Positions 6,257-45,505 of a stretch of DNA of 64,000 nucleotides are shown here, one piece after another. Below the pieces are notes generated by a model that saw only the letters and a program-made list of their open reading frames with translations, did no database searches and was not told where the DNA came from. The stretch's first letter is position 1. Each line of letters starts with the position of its first letter. A program made the position numbers and the translations under genes. This DNA is from Escherichia coli (GTDB taxonomy: Bacteria > Pseudomonadota > Gammaproteobacteria > Enterobacterales > Enterobacteriaceae), in assembly GCF_013315695.1 (NCBI RefSeq), contig NZ_CP054353.1. One strand, written 5' to 3'.

Positions 6257-6314
6257 AAAAAGGGCGGCAGAGCAGTCACGGAGTAAAACTGATACCGCCA
6301 AACGTCACCAGAAA
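6257..6314 (-). ncRNA. dicF: DicF small regulatory RNA (ftsZ-targeting antisense sRNA)
   Basis: The reverse complement reads TTTCTGGTGACGTTTGGCGGTATCAGTTTTACTCCGTGACTGCTCTGCCGCCCTTTTT, which is the DicF sequence including its terminator hairpin and U tract. It lies upstream of dicB, as in Qin. Confidence 0.92.
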
Positions 6315-13744: not shown

Positions 13745-13946
13745 ATACAGCGAACGCCATTGGTTTAGTTGGATATTTACTGTGCCGGACAAAAACGGTT
13801 TGCGGGGAAATCTTAGTTAAGTAGAATAACTGCGGGTGCTTGAGGCTATCTGTCTCAGGCATGAACACCAAAAGGCAGATAGAGAAAAGCCCCAGTTAAC
13901 ATTACGCGTCCTGCAAGACGCTTAACATTAATCTGAGGCCATATCT

Positions 13947-14006
13947 ATGCGACACATAGAGATTAGCCTCTTACGGACCGAAAGGTCAAGGAGAAGCAGG
14001 CTATGA
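13947..14006 (+). CDS. mok: mok-like leader ORF (19 codons) translationally coupled to hok
   Basis: ATG at 13947; its TGA (14004-14006) overlaps the hok ATG (14003-14005). Confidence 0.5.
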   Translation: MRHIEISLLRTERSRRSRL

Positions 14007-14972: not shown

Positions 14973-16019
14973 GTGCGGGTATTACTTCGACCTGTTCTGG
15001 TACCGGAACTCGGGCTGGTGATCGTTAAGCCGGGCAGTGAATCCATGCCGGTATTCCACAATACCCGGGTACTGGTGGAGCCGGAACCGAAAAGCATGCG
15101 TAATCTGCCGTCCGGGGTCGTTCCTGCCGTTCGCCAGCCGCTGGCGGAGGATAAATCATTACTGCCATTTTTCAGCGACGAACGAGTGATTCGTGCTGCT
15201 GGTGGCGCTGGCGCATTGTCTGACTGGTTACTGCGCCATGTTAAATCCTGCCAGTGGCCACACGGCGATTATCACCACAGTGAAACCGTCATTCACCGTT
15301 ATGGTACCGGCGCAATGGTGTTGTGCTGGCACTGCGACAACCAGCTGCGCGACCAGACCTCCGAATCACTCGGGCAACTTGCTCACCAAAACCTGTCTGC
15401 ATGGATGATTGACGTCATACGCCATGCAATGAATGGCTCGCAGGAACGGGAATTATCGCTGGCTGAATTATCCTGGTGGGCGGTCCGCAATCAGGTGGCG
15501 GACGCGCTACCGGAAGCGGTATTACGTCGTTCGCTGGGGTTGCGTGCGGAAAAAATCCGCTCAATGTACCGTGAAAGCGACATCGTACCGGGAGAGCAGA
15601 CCGCCACCAGCATACTGAAGCAGCGCACAAAAAATCTTGCGCCGCTGCCTCACGCCCACCAGCAAAACCCGCCACAGGAAGAGACGGTGGTCAGCATTGC
15701 CGTTGATCCTGAGTCTCCGGAATCTTTCATGAAACGACCTAAACGTCGCCGCTGGGTTAACGAGAAATACACACGCTGGGTGAAGACACAGCCGTGTGCG
15801 TGTTGTGGTAAGCCAGCCGACGATCCCCATCACCTGATTGGTCATGGTCAGGGCGGAATGGGGACAAAATCTCACGATATTTTCACGCTACCGCTGTGTC
15901 GGGAGCATCACAACGAGCTTCATGCGGATCCTCTGGCGTTCGAAGAAAAGCATGGTTCTCAGGTTGATTTAATTTTTCGTTTTCTTGATCACGCCTTTGC
16001 AACTGGCGTGCTTGGGTAA
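14973..16019 (+). CDS. DUF968 protein (YdfU-like, HNH-like C-terminal Cys/His cluster), 348 aa
   Basis: The C-terminus (CACCGKPADDPHHLIGHGQGGMGTKSHDIFTLPLCREHHNELH) and the position upstream of rusA match Qin ydfU. Confidence 0.8.
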   Translation: MRVLLRPVLVPELGLVIVKPGSESMPVFHNTRVLVEPEPKSMRNLPSGVVPAVRQPLAEDKSLLPFFSDERVIRAAGGAGALSDWLLRHVKSCQWPHGDYHHSETVIHRYGTGAMVLCWHCDNQLRDQTSESLGQLAHQNLSAWMIDVIRHAMNGSQERELSLAELSWWAVRNQVADALPEAVLRRSLGLRAEKIRSMYRESDIVPGEQTATSILKQRTKNLAPLPHAHQQNPPQEETVVSIAVDPESPESFMKRPKRRRWVNEKYTRWVKTQPCACCGKPADDPHHLIGHGQGGMGTKSHDIFTLPLCREHHNELHADPLAFEEKHGSQVDLIFRFLDHAFATGVLG

Positions 16020-40147: not shown

Positions 40148-40891
40148 ATGACACAGACAGAATCAGCGATTCTGGCGCATGCCCGGCGGTGTGTGCCTGC
40201 GGAGTCGTGCGGCTTAGTGGTGAGAACGCCGGAGGGGGAGCGGTATATCCCTTGTGTGAATATCTCTGCAGAGCCGGAGGCGTATTTTCGTATTGCACCG
40301 GAAGACTGGCTGCGGGCAGAGATGCAGGGGGAGATTGTGGCACTGGTCCACAGTCATCCCGGTGGGCTGCCCTGGCTGAGCGAGGCTGACCGGCGGCTGC
40401 AGATAAAAAGCGCACTGCCCTGGTGGCTGGTCTGCCGGGGTGACATTCACAAATTCCGCTGCGTGCCGCACCTGACGGGACGGCGCTTTGAGCACGGGGT
40501 GACGGACTGTTACACCCTGTTCCGGGATGCATACCATCTGGCGGGGACTGAAATGCCGGATTTTCATCGCGAGGATGACTGGTGGCGCAACGGTCAGAAC
40601 CTTTACCTGGACAATATGGCGGTCACCGGCTTTTACCGGGTGCCCCTGTCCTCTGCACAGGCGGGCGATATTCTGCTGTGCTGCTTTGGTGCTTCGGTAC
40701 CGAACCATGCCGCCATTTACTGCGGCAACGGTGAGCTGCTTCACCATCTGCCTGAACAACTGAGTAAACGGGAGAGGTATTCCGAAAAATGGCAACGACG
40801 AACGCATTCTGTCTGGCGTCACCGCCACTGGCACGCATCTGCCTTCACGGGGATTTGCAACGATTTGGCCGCCGCCTCAGCCTGTATGTGA
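40148..40891 (+). CDS. K: Tail tip assembly protein K (MPN/JAB plus NlpC/P60 domains), 247 aa
   Basis: HSHPGG is a JAMM-like motif, and ..DCYTLFRDAY.. is an NlpC/P60 Cys motif. The gene overlaps I by about 100 nt, as in lambda. Confidence 0.88.
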   Translation: MTQTESAILAHARRCVPAESCGLVVRTPEGERYIPCVNISAEPEAYFRIAPEDWLRAEMQGEIVALVHSHPGGLPWLSEADRRLQIKSALPWWLVCRGDIHKFRCVPHLTGRRFEHGVTDCYTLFRDAYHLAGTEMPDFHREDDWWRNGQNLYLDNMAVTGFYRVPLSSAQAGDILLCCFGASVPNHAAIYCGNGELLHHLPEQLSKRERYSEKWQRRTHSVWRHRHWHASAFTGICNDLAAASACM

Positions 40892-41469
40892 ACACGGCAG
40901 CGGAAGCCATTCGCGCCCTGTCGATGCAGATGCCGGGCTTTCGCCGTCAGATGAACGAAGGCTGGTACCAGATACGTATTGCCGGTGATGACACGGCACC
41001 GGAGGCGGTGTATGCCCGTCTTCACGAACAGCTGGGTGAGGGAACGGTCATCCACATTGTGCCGCGACTGGCCGGGGCCGGAAAGGGTGGACTGCAGATT
41101 GTGCTGGGGGCGGCAGCCATCGTGGGCTCTTTCTTCACGGCCGGAGGCTCGATGGCGTTATGGGGTACAGCCCTGAGTGCCGGTGGTTTTTCTGCCACCA
41201 CGATGCTGTTTTCACTGGGTGCCAGCATGATACTGGGCGGAGTGGCCCAGATGCTGGCCCCGAAGGCAAAAACACCGGATTACCGCGCAACGGATAACGG
41301 CAGACAGAACACGTACTTTTCCTCGCTGGATAACATGATTGCCCAGGGGAACCCGATGCCGGTGCCTTACGGGGAAATGCTGGTTGGCTCCCGCCGTATA
41401 TCCCAGGACATCAGCACCCGTGATGAAGGCGGGGGCGGAAAGGTCGTGGTTATCGGGCGGCAGGGGTAA
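40789..41469 (+). CDS. I: Tail tip assembly protein I, 226 aa
   Basis: MATTNAFCLASPPLARICLHGDLQRFGRR... aligns with the lambda gpI N-terminus and with ..NTYFSSLDNM.AQGN..PV.YGEM.VGSR. Confidence 0.9.
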   Translation: MATTNAFCLASPPLARICLHGDLQRFGRRLSLYVNTAAEAIRALSMQMPGFRRQMNEGWYQIRIAGDDTAPEAVYARLHEQLGEGTVIHIVPRLAGAGKGGLQIVLGAAAIVGSFFTAGGSMALWGTALSAGGFSATTMLFSLGASMILGGVAQMLAPKAKTPDYRATDNGRQNTYFSSLDNMIAQGNPMPVPYGEMLVGSRRISQDISTRDEGGGGKVVVIGRQG

Positions 41470-41476
41470 AAAGAAT

Positions 41477-41573
41477 AAAAAAATCCCGCAGTGATCGCGG
41501 ACAGGAACTGCGGGAGAGTTACGAAGATTAAGTGTAAGGAATTATTCTTATATCACGACAAAAAAATTAACGC
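41477..41573 (-). ncRNA. Candidate sRNA of about 97 nt, antisense-oriented in the I-J gap (consensus-like promoter to strong intrinsic terminator)
   Basis: The reverse-strand promoter is TTCACA-N16-TATAAT (41580-41607). An AU-rich body without an ORF follows. The terminator is TCCCGCAG-16 nt-CTGCGGGA (41484-41515) followed by TTTTTTTATT. Confidence 0.45.
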
Positions 41574-41579
41574 AGAGAA

Positions 41580-41607
41580 ATTATACGCGCCACAGTCAGT
41601 TTGTGAA
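41580..41607 (-). promoter_or_regulatory. Near-consensus sigma70 promoter (TTCACA-N16-TATAAT) on the reverse strand
   Basis: The plus-strand ATTATA at 41580-41585 and TGTGAA at 41602-41607 are the reverse complements of the -10 and -35 elements. Confidence 0.5.
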
Positions 41608-41679
41608 AATGTGAAGATATTCAGAATTTTTATGCCATTACCGGTTTTAACCAACAGGATTATCGGTGGGCATGAAAGA

Positions 41680-41709
41680 AAACCCCGGTATCTGCTGATA
41701 CCGGGGTTT
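41680..41709. terminator. Perfect 13-bp hairpin with flanking A/T runs (bidirectional terminator-like)
   Basis: AAACCCCGGTATC-TGCT-GATACCGGGGTTT. On the reverse strand it is followed by TCTTTC. Confidence 0.6.
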
Positions 41710-41812
41710 CTCTTTAGCATGGCAGAAATGTGTTTCATGCTTTTCGGGCGAAGGATATCCGACTTCTGTACGGAATGGCAAGTGGCGGTTAATTTATTCA
41801 GGGGAAGGCTGT

Positions 41813-44800
41813 ATGGGAAAAGGTGGCGGTAAGGCACACACGCCTCGTGAGGCGAAGGATAATCTCAAATCCACGCAGATGATGAGTGTGATTGATGCGA
41901 TTGGTGAGGGACCGATAGAAGGTCCGGTGAAGGGACTGCAGAGTATTCTGGTGAACAAAACCCCGCTGACGGACACGGACGGTAATCCCGTGATACACGG
42001 TGTGACTGCGGTCTGGCGTGCCGGGGAGCAGGAGCAGACACCACCGGAAGGCTTTGAGTCCTCCGGAGCTGAAACCGGACTGGGCGTGGAAGTGACGAAG
42101 GCAAAACCGGTGACGCGCACCATTACGTCCGCGAACATTGACCGCCTGCGGGTTACCTTCGGGGTGCAGTCACTGGTGCAGACCACGTCAAAGGGCGACC
42201 GTAATCCTTCCTCTGTCCGGATTCTGATTCAGTTACAGCGTAATGGCCGCTGGGTGACGGAAAAGGATGTCACCATTAACGGCAAGACCACCTCGCAGTT
42301 CCTGGCCTCGGTGATTCTGGATAATCTGCCTCCCCGGCCCTTTAACATCCGGATGGTCAGGGAGACGGCGGACAGCACCACGGACCAGCTGCAGAATAAG
42401 ACGCTGTGGTCGTCATACACCGAAATCATCGATGTGAAACAGTGCTACCCGAACACGGCCATTGTGGGGCTGCAGGTGGATGCGGAGCAGTTCGGCGGCC
42501 AGCAGATGACGGTGAACTACCATATCCGCGGTCGCATCATCCAGGTGCCGTCAAACTATGACCCGGAAAAACGCACGTACAGTGGTATCTGGGACGGCAG
42601 CCTGAAACCGGCATACAGCAACAACCCGGCCTGGTGTCTGTGGGACATGCTGACTCACCCGCGCTACGGCATGGGAAAACGTCTGGGGGCGGCGGATGTG
42701 GACAAGTGGGCGCTGTATGCCATCGGGCAGTACTGCGACCAGACGGTCCCGGATGGTTTCGGGGGGACCGAGCCGCGGATGACCTTTAATGCGTACCTGG
42801 CACAACAGCGTAAGGCGTGGGACGTTCTCAGTGATTTCTGCTCTGCGATGCGCTGTATGCCGGTATGGAACGGCCAGACGCTGACGTTCGTTCAGGACCG
42901 TCCGTCGGATGTGGTGTGGCCGTACACCAACAGCGATGTGGTGGTGGATGATAACGGCGTGGGTTTCCGCTACAGCTCCAGTGCCCTGAAGGACCGGCAC
43001 ACGGCAGTGGAGGTGAATTACACCGACCCGCAGAACGGCTGGCAGACCTCCACGGAACTGGTGGAAGACCCGGAAGCCATACTGCGCTACGGACGCAACC
43101 TGCTGAAGATGGACGCGTTCGGCTGTACCAGCCGCGGTCAGGCCCACCGTGCCGGGCTGTGGGTGATAAAGACCGAACTGCTGGAAACGCAGACGGTGGA
43201 TTTCACGCTTGGGTCACAGGGGCTGCGTCACACACCCGGTGACATCATTGAAATCTGTGATAACGACTATGCCGGGACCATGACCGGCGGACGTGTCCTG
43301 TCCATCGATGCCGCCAGCCGTACCCTGACGCTGGACCGGGAGGTGACACTGCCGGAGACCGGCACGGCCACTGTTAATCTGATTAACGGCAGCGGTAAGC
43401 CGGCGAGCGTGGCCATCACCGCACACCCCGCGCCTGACCGGATACAGGTCAGCACCCTGCCGGATGGTGTGGAGACATACGGTGTGTGGGGACTCTCCCT
43501 GCCGTCACTGCGTCGTCGCCTGTTCCGCTGTGTCTCCATCCGGGAAAACACGGACGGCACCTTTGCCATCACGGCGGTGCAGCACGTACCTGAAAAAGAA
43601 GCCATCGTGGATAACGGGGCCCGCTTTGAGCCGCAGTCAGGCACCCTGAACAGCGTTATCCCACCGGCAGTGCAGCACCTGACGGTGGAGGTGAGCGCAG
43701 CTGACGGCCAGTATCTGGCGCAGGCTAAATGGGACACGCCGCGGGTGGTGAAGGGCGTGCGCTTCAGTCTGCGCCTGACCAGTGGTAAGGGAACGGATGC
43801 CAGACTGGTGACCACCGCCATCACCGCAGACACGGAGCACCGTTTCAGCGGCCTGCCACTGGGGGAATACACCCTGACGGTGCGGGCCATTAACAGCTAC
43901 GGCCAGCAGGGCGAACCTGCGACCACCACCTTCCGGATTAACGCGCCTGCAAAACCCGCCACCATTGAGCTGACGCCGGGGTATTTTCAGATAACGGCGG
44001 TACCGGTGCTGGCGGTGTATGACCCGACGGTGCAGTTTGAATTCTGGTTCTCAGAAAAACGCATCACGAACACGGCACAGGTGGAAAAATCTGCCCGTTA
44101 TCTGGGGACCGGCAGTCAGTGGACTGTCCAGGGGAGCCGGATTAAGCCGGGGACGGATTTCTGGTTTTACGTGCGAAGCGTCAACCTGGTGGGAAAATCT
44201 GCTTTTGTGGAAGCCAGCGGGCAGCCCAGCAATGATGGTGAAGGGTATCTGGAAATTTTCCGGGGGCTGATAGATGAGACGCTTCTGGGGCAGGCACTGA
44301 AAGAGCGCATTGATGCTTCAGCGCTGCGTACGGAGGTCACGCAACTGGAAGAAGATATCCGTCAGCGGATGGACACGGATATCGCAGAAGTGACCCGGAA
44401 AATCGGGAAGGCGGAAAACAGCCTCACGCAGCTGGTTGCGAAAAAGAATGAGGACCAGACACTGGCCATCGCGCAGGTGAGCCAGAAAGTGGACCGGGTG
44501 AGCAGTGAAATCTCACAGACTGTCAGCCAGGGGCAGTCAGAAAACGCCCGACAGATAGCACAGGTCCGCCAGTACGTGGATAAAAAAGGGAGTGAAATTA
44601 CCTCGACCACGGATAAAAAGCTGGGTGACCAGGCCGTGACCATACAGCAAATCCAGCGGGTTCAGTCAGACACGCGCAATGAGCTGAATGCCATGTATAT
44701 GCTGAAGGTGCAGAAAACAAAAAACGGTATTCCCTATGTGGCCGGGATTGGCGCGGGGATTGAGGATGTTGATGGTCAGACCCTGAGTAACATTCTGCTG

Positions 44801-45505
44801 CAGGCCGATCGCATTGCGATGATTACCCCGGAGAACGGCAACACCACGCCGCTGTTTGTGGCGCAGGGGAATCAGCTGTTCATGAACGACGTGTTCCTGA
44901 AGCGACTGTTTGCGGTGAGCATCACGTCATCCGGCAATCCTCCGACGTTTTCCCTGACGCCGGATGGCAGGCTGACAGCCCGCAATGCGGATATCAGTGG
45001 AGCCATCACGGCGAATACCGGCACGCTCAATAATGTCACCATTAACGAGAACTGTGTCATCAGAGGGAAACTGTCTGCAAACCAGATTGAAGGCGATCTC
45101 GTTAAAACAGTGGGTAAGGCTTTCCCCCGTGACTCCCGTGCACCGAAGCGTTGGCCATCAGGAACCATTACCGTCAGGGTTTATGACGATCAGCCGTTTA
45201 ACCGGCAGATTGTTATTCCGGCGGTGGCTTTCAGCGGTGCCAGACATGAGCGGGAGAACAGCGATACTTATTCGTCATGCCGCCTGATAGTGAAGAAAAA
45301 CGGTGCTGAAATTTATAACCGTACCGCGATGGATAATACGCTGGTTTACAGTGGTGTTATTGATATGCCTGCTGGTCGCGGCCACATGACGCTGGAGTTT
45401 TCTGTATCAGCATGGTGGGTAAATGGCTGGTATCCCACAGCAAGTATCAGCGATTTGCTGGTTGTTGTGATGAAGAAAGCCACTGCAGGCATCACGATTA
45501 GCTGA
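41813..45505 (+). CDS. J: Central tail fibre / host-specificity protein J, 1230 aa
   Basis: The N-terminus ([37 protein letters not shown]) and the overall layout match lambda gpJ. It is longer than lambda J by about 100 aa. Confidence 0.93.

Follow-up and report, generated by a model that had tools for sequence, protein, structure and literature searches.

A predicted PasB-family small RNA gene, opposed to the late operon, between tail genes I and J of an Escherichia coli prophage

The I-J gap and the probable small RNA gene within it

The DNA analysed here is a stretch of 64,000 nucleotides from Escherichia coli contig NZ_CP054353.1 (assembly GCF_013315695.1), referred to below as the window, which carries a lambda-type block of prophage tail genes on its plus strand. 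Between the tail assembly gene I and the tail tip and host specificity gene J of this block lies a gap of 343 bp (41470-41812) that consists of two modules. The left ~170 bp (about 41470-41636) very probably form an autonomous, moron-like small RNA (sRNA) gene of the PasB family, running against the late operon, and the right-hand module is most likely a late-operon hairpin, not an sRNA gene. Judged by its sequence, the left unit is a divergent allele of the known PasB sRNA family of enteropathogenic E. coli (EPEC), and its detection is a rediscovery, not the finding of a new kind of element.

The two genes that border the gap were identified from their products. That of the gene I open reading frame (ORF) matches Pfam Lambda_tail_I (E = 1.8e-16) and, in PHROG, a tail assembly protein; the RefSeq version of this ORF, annotated at an identical locus, is shorter (582 bp). 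The product of the J ORF contains six GpJ-type domains (Pfam). Since I ends at 41469 and J begins at 41813, the 343-nt spacing given in the original prediction is exact, and so is its estimate of about 60 nt for phage lambda, in which 60 bp (15445-15504) separate the end of I at 15444 from the start of J at 15505. GC content is 0.33-0.44 inside the gap vs 0.55-0.66 in the flanking genes. The gap is no chance oddity; the same sequence is present in 1668 of 5426 complete E. coli genomes (~31%). Its division into two modules is seen in the BLAST coverage, which breaks at query position 194-197: the stretch from 41440 to 41636, which includes the sRNA cassette, is common to 148 phage records, mostly of Shiga toxin (Stx) phages, and 41637-41812 is found in a subset of them only. 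The Rfam scan that had been proposed as a check found nothing credible in the gap and four other sRNAs elsewhere in the window (Table 1). Within the gap, Rfam 15 gave no match at gathering thresholds, and a search at permissive E-values returned sub-threshold, chance-level matches only. No PasB model was matched in Rfam; models for AgvB, AsxR and STnc100 exist and match their own loci.

The signals of an sRNA gene follow one another on the minus strand of the left module. The near-consensus promoter that had been proposed there is confirmed by a promoter scan, with 11/12 matches, and an identical TTCACA-N16-TATAAT promoter stands at the same place in EPEC strain E2348/69 and in many alleles of the family. 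The AT-rich block upstream of the -35 box is constant in the family and occurs in nearly every cassette, including tandem copies with differing -35 and -10 boxes. Written as AAAAWTTCTGAAnnTCTTCACATTT, it is more conserved than the -35 and -10 hexamers and holds a TGAA-N4-TTCA inverted repeat; it is possibly an UP element or the site of a regulator.

Transcription from the promoter at 41607-41580 would start near 41573, run through an AU-rich body and end at a hairpin followed by U7 (41515-41477). The predicted primary transcript measures ~94-97 nt, with a 5' end, GCGUUA..., placed from the -10 box (~41573) and a 3' end inside the U7 run; a 5' end equivalent to that annotated in EPEC would lie at ~41559 and give an RNA of ~82 nt. 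As the original prediction had stated, the body between promoter and terminator is AU-rich, and it is largely unstructured, the fold of the single sequence being weak (z = -2.1). The strong terminator likewise holds up in sequence, scan and fold: an 8-bp stem (41484-41515) that reads CCCGCAG...CUGCGGG in the RNA precedes U7AUU (41483-41474, minus strand). Of this stem the scan lists an inner 6-pair version, and the fold gives the long one. The terminator hairpin, the U7 tail and UUAAUCUUCGUAACUCU just upstream of the stem are features of a putative Hfq-binding module. A conserved block upstream of the terminator, the putative seed, is unpaired in the RNAalifold consensus of the family and, in the minimum-energy structure of the single sequence, which is weak, partly paired. 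When the window was searched for complements of the seed, 6 matches were obtained vs 2.15 expected, and only the gene's own complement (41521) went beyond chance. A hidden Markov model (HMM) of the family has a single strong match in the whole window, at 41641-41476 (E = 3.8e-45), with the window allele itself forming part of the HMM's alignment.

Table 1. Features of the I-J gap, its bordering genes and other RNA genes of the window
Feature	Position	Strand	Basis
PasB-family sRNA gene, window allele	41477..41573	-	alignment to E2348/69 PasB, probe match, family HMM, fold
Predicted sigma-70 promoter of the sRNA, TTCACA-N16-TATAAT	41607..41580	-	promoter scan, 11/12 matches
AT-rich block GCATAAAAATTCTGAATATCTTCACATTT upstream of -35, its 3' end entering the -35 hexamer	41608..41636	-	conserved among cassettes
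Conserved single-stranded block UUAAUCUUCGU, putative seed	41531..41521	-	alignment of 38 alleles, consensus fold
Intrinsic terminator of the sRNA, stem UCCCGCAG/CUGCGGGA, 16-nt loop	41515..41484	-	sequence, scan, fold
Second module, from sRNA promoter block to J start	41637..41812	.	BLAST coverage, variant list
Perfect 13-bp hairpin AAACCCCGGTATC-TGCT-GATACCGGGGTTT, 4-nt loop	41680..41709	.	sequence, fold
Promoter-like TTGCCA-N18-TATCCT, probably a chance match	41781..41752	-	scan, 9/12
Tail assembly gene I, left border of the gap	40789..41469	+	ORF list, Pfam, PHROG, RefSeq annotation of identical locus
Tail tip / host specificity gene J, right border of the gap	41813..45505	+	ORF list, Pfam, RefSeq gpJ
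STnc100	18317-18506	+	Rfam, 132 bits
sok antitoxin	13834-14005	+	Rfam, 107 bits
DicF	6262-6313	-	Rfam, 77 bits
rseX, host sRNA	58113-58203	-	Rfam, 91 bits
Four tRNA genes	683-755, 1747-1833, 17368-17440, 17544-17617		Rfam

In its overall design the left unit resembles a moron, which in the sense of Juhala and Hendrix is said to be an extra transcription unit, with a promoter and a terminator of its own, inserted between two conserved phage genes. The gap likewise holds extra DNA compared with lambda (343 vs 60 bp), with its own predicted promoter and terminator and a GC content below that of its neighbours, and the unit could be transcribed while the surrounding operon is silent. Classic morons, however, encode proteins and are usually co-directional with the genes around them, whereas the unit in the window would encode an RNA and points the opposite way.

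Kinship to PasB of EPEC and probable kinship to EcOnc22-24 of EHEC

Five prophage sRNAs, PasB among them, were found by Hfq RIL-seq (sequencing of interacting RNAs after their ligation) and confirmed by northern blotting in EPEC E2348/69 (Pearl Mizrahi et al. 2021, Sci Adv, PMC8550237). PasB (pathogenicity-associated sRNA B) is an 83-nt RNA from the minus strand of prophage PP6 (NC_011601.1 1466343..1466261), encoded between E2348C_1436 and E2348C_1437 (PMC8550237); RefSeq shows this pair to be homologues of I and J, in a late operon on the plus strand. On northern blots it gave a band of the predicted size with the probe AATCCCGCAGTGATCGCGGAGCT, and its stability was Hfq-dependent; in RNA-seq the comparison with the hfq mutant gave log2 values of -6.8 under activating and -2.4 under non-activating conditions (PMC8550237), the RNA being reported as higher under 'non-activating' conditions. 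RIL-seq detected 37 interactions, and PasB took the second position in almost every one of its chimeras, the usual behaviour of a bona fide sRNA (PMC8550237). Among its partners are yhhX (57 chimeras, odds ratio 80), ler, bfpB, bfpI, perB, ftsZ and galE. On the PasB side, the chimeric sequences fall within the 3' 58 nt of the RNA, which contain the putative seed block. A later preprint (Zhu, Shabalina and Storz 2026, bioRxiv 10.64898/2026.05.13.724894) describes PasB as lying within a phage structural-gene operon, often the sole Pas sRNA in strains other than EPEC and enterohaemorrhagic E. coli (EHEC), and frequent in extraintestinal isolates; it proposes a seed just upstream of the terminator and pictures PasB as the least variable of the Pas sRNAs.

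The allele in the window agrees with PasB in place, orientation and sequence. Both occupy the same site, between I and J of a lambdoid prophage, and run antisense to its late operon, their terminators finishing within a few bases of the stop codon of I, and the gaps of the window and of E2348/69 align from the end of I through terminator, body and promoter to ~30 bp beyond. The promoter, the upstream AT-rich block, the 5' GCGUUA, the terminator stem and the U7 tail are the same; the block before the terminator is conserved, reading UUAAUCUUCGU in the window vs UUGAUCUUCAU in type PasB; and the PasB northern probe matches the plus strand of the window at 20 of 23 bases (41481-41500). The two alleles nevertheless differ: the window allele is 63.5% identical to PasB over the RNA and 57% in the body, its terminator loop has 16 nt vs 11 nt, the sequence between U-run and seed is not the same, and the module upstream of the promoter is unlike that of E2348/69 and ~100 bp longer. 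The longest exact match of the window allele to the 83-nt PasB is 26 nt, so that a BLAST search with word size 28, as used in the main search of the 2026 preprint, would probably miss it. I-J site, antisense strand, homology, an own sigma-70 promoter and a Rho-independent terminator, all features of the PasB family, are thus found in the window. The original reading of a reverse-strand Hfq-type sRNA of ~97 nt was accordingly correct in that it corresponds to the validated PasB of EPEC and, by inference, to the EcOnc22-24 RNAs discussed below, and the RNA is not new.

The homologues also indicate how the RNA in the window might act. A lysogen keeps its late operon silent, so that the sRNA would be made from the resident prophage. 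Expression in the lysogen, against the late operon, had been part of the original prediction and fits the homologues, the RNAs of which are made in lysogens, depend on Hfq for their abundance and are ligated on Hfq to many unlinked mRNAs. By the same token the abundance of the window RNA would be Hfq-dependent, presumably through its U-tail and terminator, and the RNA would pair in trans with host and accessory-genome mRNAs through UUAAUCUUC(G/A)U, possibly aided by the neighbouring AAUUCCUU block. Over most of its 5' two-thirds the window allele is unlike PasB, and the two may therefore have partly different target sets.

Alternatively, the RNA might be mainly cis-acting and pair, after induction, with the I-J spacer of the late mRNA, its trans targets being secondary; cleavage by RNase III or RNase E, or a block to ribosomes, would then tune J or uncouple I from J. 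In every phage examined the sRNA gene lies wholly within the late transcription unit and on its opposite strand. Along its whole length the RNA is complementary to the I-J spacer, its position at the junction is strictly kept while its body varies, and the arrangement resembles other phage antisense RNAs. Yet RIL-seq recovered PasB with many unlinked mRNAs, and neither I nor J is a partner among the interaction rows listed. The RNA also overlaps no ribosome-binding site or coding sequence, its transcript ending 8 nt from the stop codon of I and lying more than 200 nt from the start of J. Conserved blocks amid a variable remainder suit a seed-based trans RNA better; a cis-acting RNA, whose complementarity is automatic, needs no sequence conservation, and the conserved blocks would be left unexplained. 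We therefore regard a mainly cis-acting RNA as unlikely and favour a trans-acting sRNA of the PasB family.

A further link leads to EHEC strain Sakai. EcOnc22, EcOnc23 and EcOnc24 are homologous peaks obtained by Hfq CRAC (cross-linked RNA analysed as cDNA) in the Sakai prophages Sp15 (Stx1), Sp14 and Sp11, respectively (Tree et al. 2014, Mol Cell, PMC4104026, Table S2). EcOnc22 was seen on a northern blot as an RNA of ~85 nt that is destabilised without Hfq (PMC4104026); according to a 2021 review its targets are unknown. The published positions of all three, placed in NC_002695.2, are in I-J gaps, antisense to the late operon and at the same relative offset. The EcOnc coordinates in Table S2 of Tree et al. 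2014 are off by ~+130 to +146 nt relative to NC_002695.2, at least from 1.94 Mb on, and mapping them uncorrected on that sequence leads to the wrong feature. This shift was settled by AgvB1 and, more loosely, by the STnc100 copy of Sp17. AgvB1 is published at 1941783-1941835 and the Rfam AgvB match lies at 1941920-1941981, a shift of +137 to +146; EcOnc06, taken as the Sp17 STnc100 copy because it is on the same strand and of similar size, would give a shift of +99 to +227 at 3.49 Mb. A shift of ~+128 to +146 puts EcOnc22 at ~2902842-2902920, inside a cassette at ~2902835-2902926; so corrected, the EcOnc22-24 peaks come to lie inside the PasB-like RNA. This Sakai Sp15 cassette has the same promoter block, seed and terminator as the PasB family, and differs in carrying a third variant of the body, 59% identical to the window allele, and an AATAAT -10 box with a poor -35. 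We infer that EcOnc22-24 belong to the PasB family. The link is absent from both Pas papers: 'EcOnc' does not occur in the main text of the preprint, and no EHEC homologue is given in the PasB row of Table S6.

Another pair of prophage RNAs, AgvB and AsxR (RF02702, RF02703), offers a parallel. They too are short Hfq-binding sRNAs at a fixed moron site of lambdoid prophages, and they too combine a conserved 3' part and terminator with a variable 5' part that sets specificity. Their site, however, is downstream of PR'/Q, they measure 51-60 nt, they share no sequence similarity with the window RNA, and they sponge core sRNAs, an activity to which nothing points in PasB-family RNAs. An identity of the window RNA with AgvB or AsxR was rejected: these occupy the PR' moron site and contain CACAACA, and their Rfam models have no match in the gap.

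Diversity and distribution of the family

The terminator pattern CCCGCAG-N6-24-CTGCGGGATTTTTT retrieved at least 120 contigs from IMG/VR. The IMG/VR matches listed, together with 17 loci from GenBank phages and RefSeq genomes, were filtered for the seed motif and made up the family set, which comprises at least 56 distinct promoter-to-terminator sequences and approximately 49 or more distinct sRNA bodies; 38 alleles were aligned. Constant across these 38 are the 5' GCGUUA, the U-run, AAyUCC, UUAAUCUUC(A/G)U and the terminator, the stem of which is identical in every allele collected, and within the body the seed block is the most conserved part. The RNAalifold consensus leaves the body unpaired, with the terminator as sole structure, which is the usual anatomy of an Hfq sRNA. 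The family is a mosaic, in which variants of the promoter, the body and the terminator loop combine differently from one allele to the next.

Among the IMG/VR matches listed, the window allele is the commonest. At 99% identity or more it is present in 633 complete E. coli records (~12%), always unannotated, and its carriers include many human clinical isolates and several well-known extraintestinal strains. Strain ATCC 25922 carries this exact allele, with 100% identity over the gap. Literature searches found no description of the window sRNA in extraintestinal pathogenic E. coli (ExPEC) or uropathogenic E. coli (UPEC).

The conserved blocks could also be read from the plus strand, as a small ORF of the late operon (MKINxxEL..., from ATGAAGATTAA) of which the window copy, with ACG for ATG, would be a decayed version. 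Alleles that have the ATG read M-K-I-N-x-(K/M/R)-E-(L/F)-(F/L) and carry a Shine-Dalgarno-like run, GGGAGAG, 4-8 nt upstream; several of the variable positions are third codon positions, and a hypothetical protein of 33 aa is annotated in that section of the gap in one phage record. The start is nevertheless ACG in roughly half the alleles, the window included; the length ranges from 11 to 44 aa, as the length of the A-run shifts the frame; the ORFs of the gap match neither Pfam nor PHROG; and the minus-strand RNA has been directly seen in two pathotypes. Such a coding origin of the blocks is highly improbable, and an sRNA gene on the minus strand accounts for them better. The site of the small ORF corresponds to window positions 41521-41590 (+); a gene there is improbable, curious as the third-position pattern is. 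Readings of the gap as protein-coding were rejected in general: neither of the two ORFs that cross it (a plus-strand ORF of 113 aa and a minus-strand ORF of 94 aa) has a family match in Pfam or PHROG, and the 113-aa ORF is cut in other alleles by a TAA inside the complement of the -10 box.

Cassettes also occur in tandem. L077 323-1230 (IMG/VR UViG_2728369607_000007), L067 and L072 each hold three or four PasB-like cassettes in succession, every one with the conserved promoter block, and the I-J gap of these phages is ~900 bp long. In one of the tandem cassettes, both the terminator (CTCCCGT...ACGGGAG) and the seed region are different. The arrangement suggests a cassette array, not a single gene. 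Promoterless copies consisting of a family body and terminator were found in L015 (E. coli SMN197SH3), L083, L024, L104, L079 and L125. The copy in L015 lies ~80 nt downstream of a prophage sodC gene, in the same direction and after a GTAAGGGGC-GGG-CCCCTTAC hairpin, and could be an RNA derived from the sodC 3' untranslated region or a dead copy. A scan of 596 Gb of genome contigs with TCTTCACATTT-N28-38-GCGTTA was too loose, yielding at least 120 matches in unrelated phyla that are evidently due to chance, and was discarded.

A wider proposal, which we put forward only tentatively, is that the I-J junction is a site dedicated to the cassettes of a hypervariable Hfq sRNA family, with a shared and perhaps regulated promoter block, a shared terminator, bodies shuffled by recombination and, in some phages, three or four tandem copies. 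PasB, EcOnc22-24 and the window allele would then be one family, much more diverse than the picture of PasB as the 'least variable Pas sRNA' conveys, and the ExPEC-associated window allele would be functionally distinct, with a target set unlike that of EPEC PasB.

For annotation the gain is a practical one: RefSeq annotates nothing at the cassette and Rfam is without a model for it. Treating the window allele, EPEC PasB and EHEC EcOnc22-24 as one family would join three separate observations, and the constrained parts of the RNA (the 5' GCGUUA, the seed block and the terminator) can now be told from the free ones, making target prediction and mutational tests straightforward. The biology is of no new kind, prophage Hfq sRNAs at fixed moron sites being well established. 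What may be new is that the family is far more diverse and mosaic than published, that it appears to include EcOnc22-24, and that in some phages it forms arrays of three or four cassettes.

The right-hand module and the weighing of the evidence

The second module is confined to the I-J junction and stands in place of an unrelated module of ~85 bp found in E2348/69 and most Stx phages. Of 41 copies collected, 35 belong to a single allele. Among the six rarer alleles there are two 1-nt indels and one 47-bp deletion, so that three of the six have frame-breaking indels. Because the module is almost invariant, conservation gives no test of it. In the deletion allele, from IMG/VR contig L132, exactly 47 bp are missing, equivalent to window positions 41680-41726, which comprise the hairpin and the following 17 nt; the deletion is flanked by imperfect direct repeats, GCATGAAAGAAA and GCATGGCAGAAA, consistent with a slipped deletion or with the arrival of the hairpin as a small insertion.

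The perfect 13-bp hairpin reported at 41680-41709 is indeed present. It is flanked by an A/G-rich side and a T/C-rich side, giving UUUCUCUUU on the plus strand and UUUUCUUUC on the minus strand, and when the surrounding 81 nt (minus strand, 41665-41745) are folded, z is -6.85 relative to shuffles. The hairpin resembles a bidirectional terminator, yet the terminator scan, with its rule of a GC-rich stem-loop followed by at least 5 T within 8 nt, lists it on neither strand. The maximal stem leaves 4 T per strand; a 10-bp stem leaves UUUCUCUU on the plus strand and UUUUCUUU on the minus strand. We rejected a dispersed repeat or mobile element as its origin, for the 81-nt piece is found at I-J junctions only, in 1444 genomes, which is the number with full-length gap matches.

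With a very stable hairpin and, after it on the minus strand, a U-rich run, the module could instead be a second sRNA gene in tandem with the first, producing a minus-strand RNA of ~75 nt from ~41745 to the hairpin and UUUUCUUUC (~41672). Three or four sRNA cassettes do occur in some related phages (L077, L067, L072), and two matches to promoter fragments, GCAGAAATGTG and TTTATTCAGGGGAAGG, flank part of the module, although with E-values of 0.2-0.9 they hint at a decayed cassette at most. The promoter-like sequence noted earlier, TTGCCA-N18-TATCCT, is there, but its strength is at chance level: at the 9/12 threshold, 3 sites were found in a 2.5-kb stretch vs 1.4 expected by chance. An HMM of the cassette promoter has no match in module 2, and the idea of a decayed cassette was dropped on this ground, the two short BLAST matches being all that favours it. 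The hairpin, moreover, fails the terminator rule and is removed by the 47-bp deletion in one contig; in the alternative module, as in lambda, the T-run of the hairpin is on the plus strand only; and the module has no Rfam match at threshold. No EcOnc or Pas RNA has been reported there, but E2348/69 does not have the long module and is silent on the point. EcOnc10 of Sakai Sp12 was considered as an RNA of the long module and rejected, its position being near the lysis genes. A second sRNA gene is thus quite improbable, and the second RNA of ~70 nt that had been proposed is unsupported, its promoter being at chance level, its hairpin deleted in one contig and unrelated plus-strand hairpins standing upstream of J elsewhere.

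These other hairpins point to a role in the late operon. In the alternative module of E2348/69 and most Stx phages, CAGGCA(C/U)CC...GG(G/A)UGCCUG is followed by UUGUUUUUG, with the T-run on the plus strand only; the scan flags the E2348/69 hairpin as a plus-strand terminator, and the alleles show one compensatory change from C-G to U-A. The I-J gap of lambda (15463-15490; L267 164-191) holds an 8-bp hairpin, AAACCGCC-UGCG-GGCGGUUU followed by UGUCAUUU on the plus strand, or in DNA letters AAACCGCC-TGCG-GGCGGTTT followed by TGTCATTT on the late strand, ~15 nt before the start of J and unflagged by the scan. A hairpin with a T-run upstream of J, on the late-operon strand, is therefore present in three unrelated sequences and in every lambdoid I-J gap examined. 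The 13-bp hairpin in the window is most likely the local version of this late-operon element just upstream of J, and not the end of a second sRNA. It might act as a barrier to polymerase unmodified by the Q antiterminator or stabilise an mRNA end, and since a U-rich run is present on the minus strand too, it may also shield the sRNA promoter from minus-strand transcription.

Several points weigh against the interpretation of the gap as a PasB-family sRNA gene beside a late-operon hairpin. The experimental support comes entirely from alleles that are 59-64% identical to the window allele over the RNA. The 5' end is uncertain, as the promoter predicts ~96 nt, vs 83 nt annotated for PasB and ~85 nt for EcOnc22. 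The link to EcOnc22-24 depends on the inferred coordinate shift, and a check of this shift with EcOnc51/PasA was ambiguous, 0 and +140 both landing on a terminator. The terminator was in the search pattern and the seed in the filter, so that their invariance is partly a matter of ascertainment and not independent evidence. Comparison of I-J junctions, which the original prediction had proposed for presence and covariation, bore out presence in the 1668 genomes given above, but RNAalifold found no covariation support for any structure in the 38 alleles. Target prediction, proposed there as well, was carried out and was uninformative: duplexes of PasB and of the window allele with yhhX and ler were long and loose and did not single out the seed, and only that of E2348 PasB with yhhX beat most shuffles (fraction 0.017). 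Finally, the role of the right-hand hairpin is argued from position alone, and on both strands it fails the terminator scan. With these points taken into account, we still consider the interpretation very likely.

Beyond the gap, the prophage region in the window is dense in regulatory RNAs (Table 1). Just upstream of STnc100, the segment 18270-18312 (+) shows a weak likeness, including ACTTCACA, to the promoter block of the PasB cassette (nhmmer E = 0.089); this may be nothing, or it may reflect a promoter type common to prophage sRNAs.

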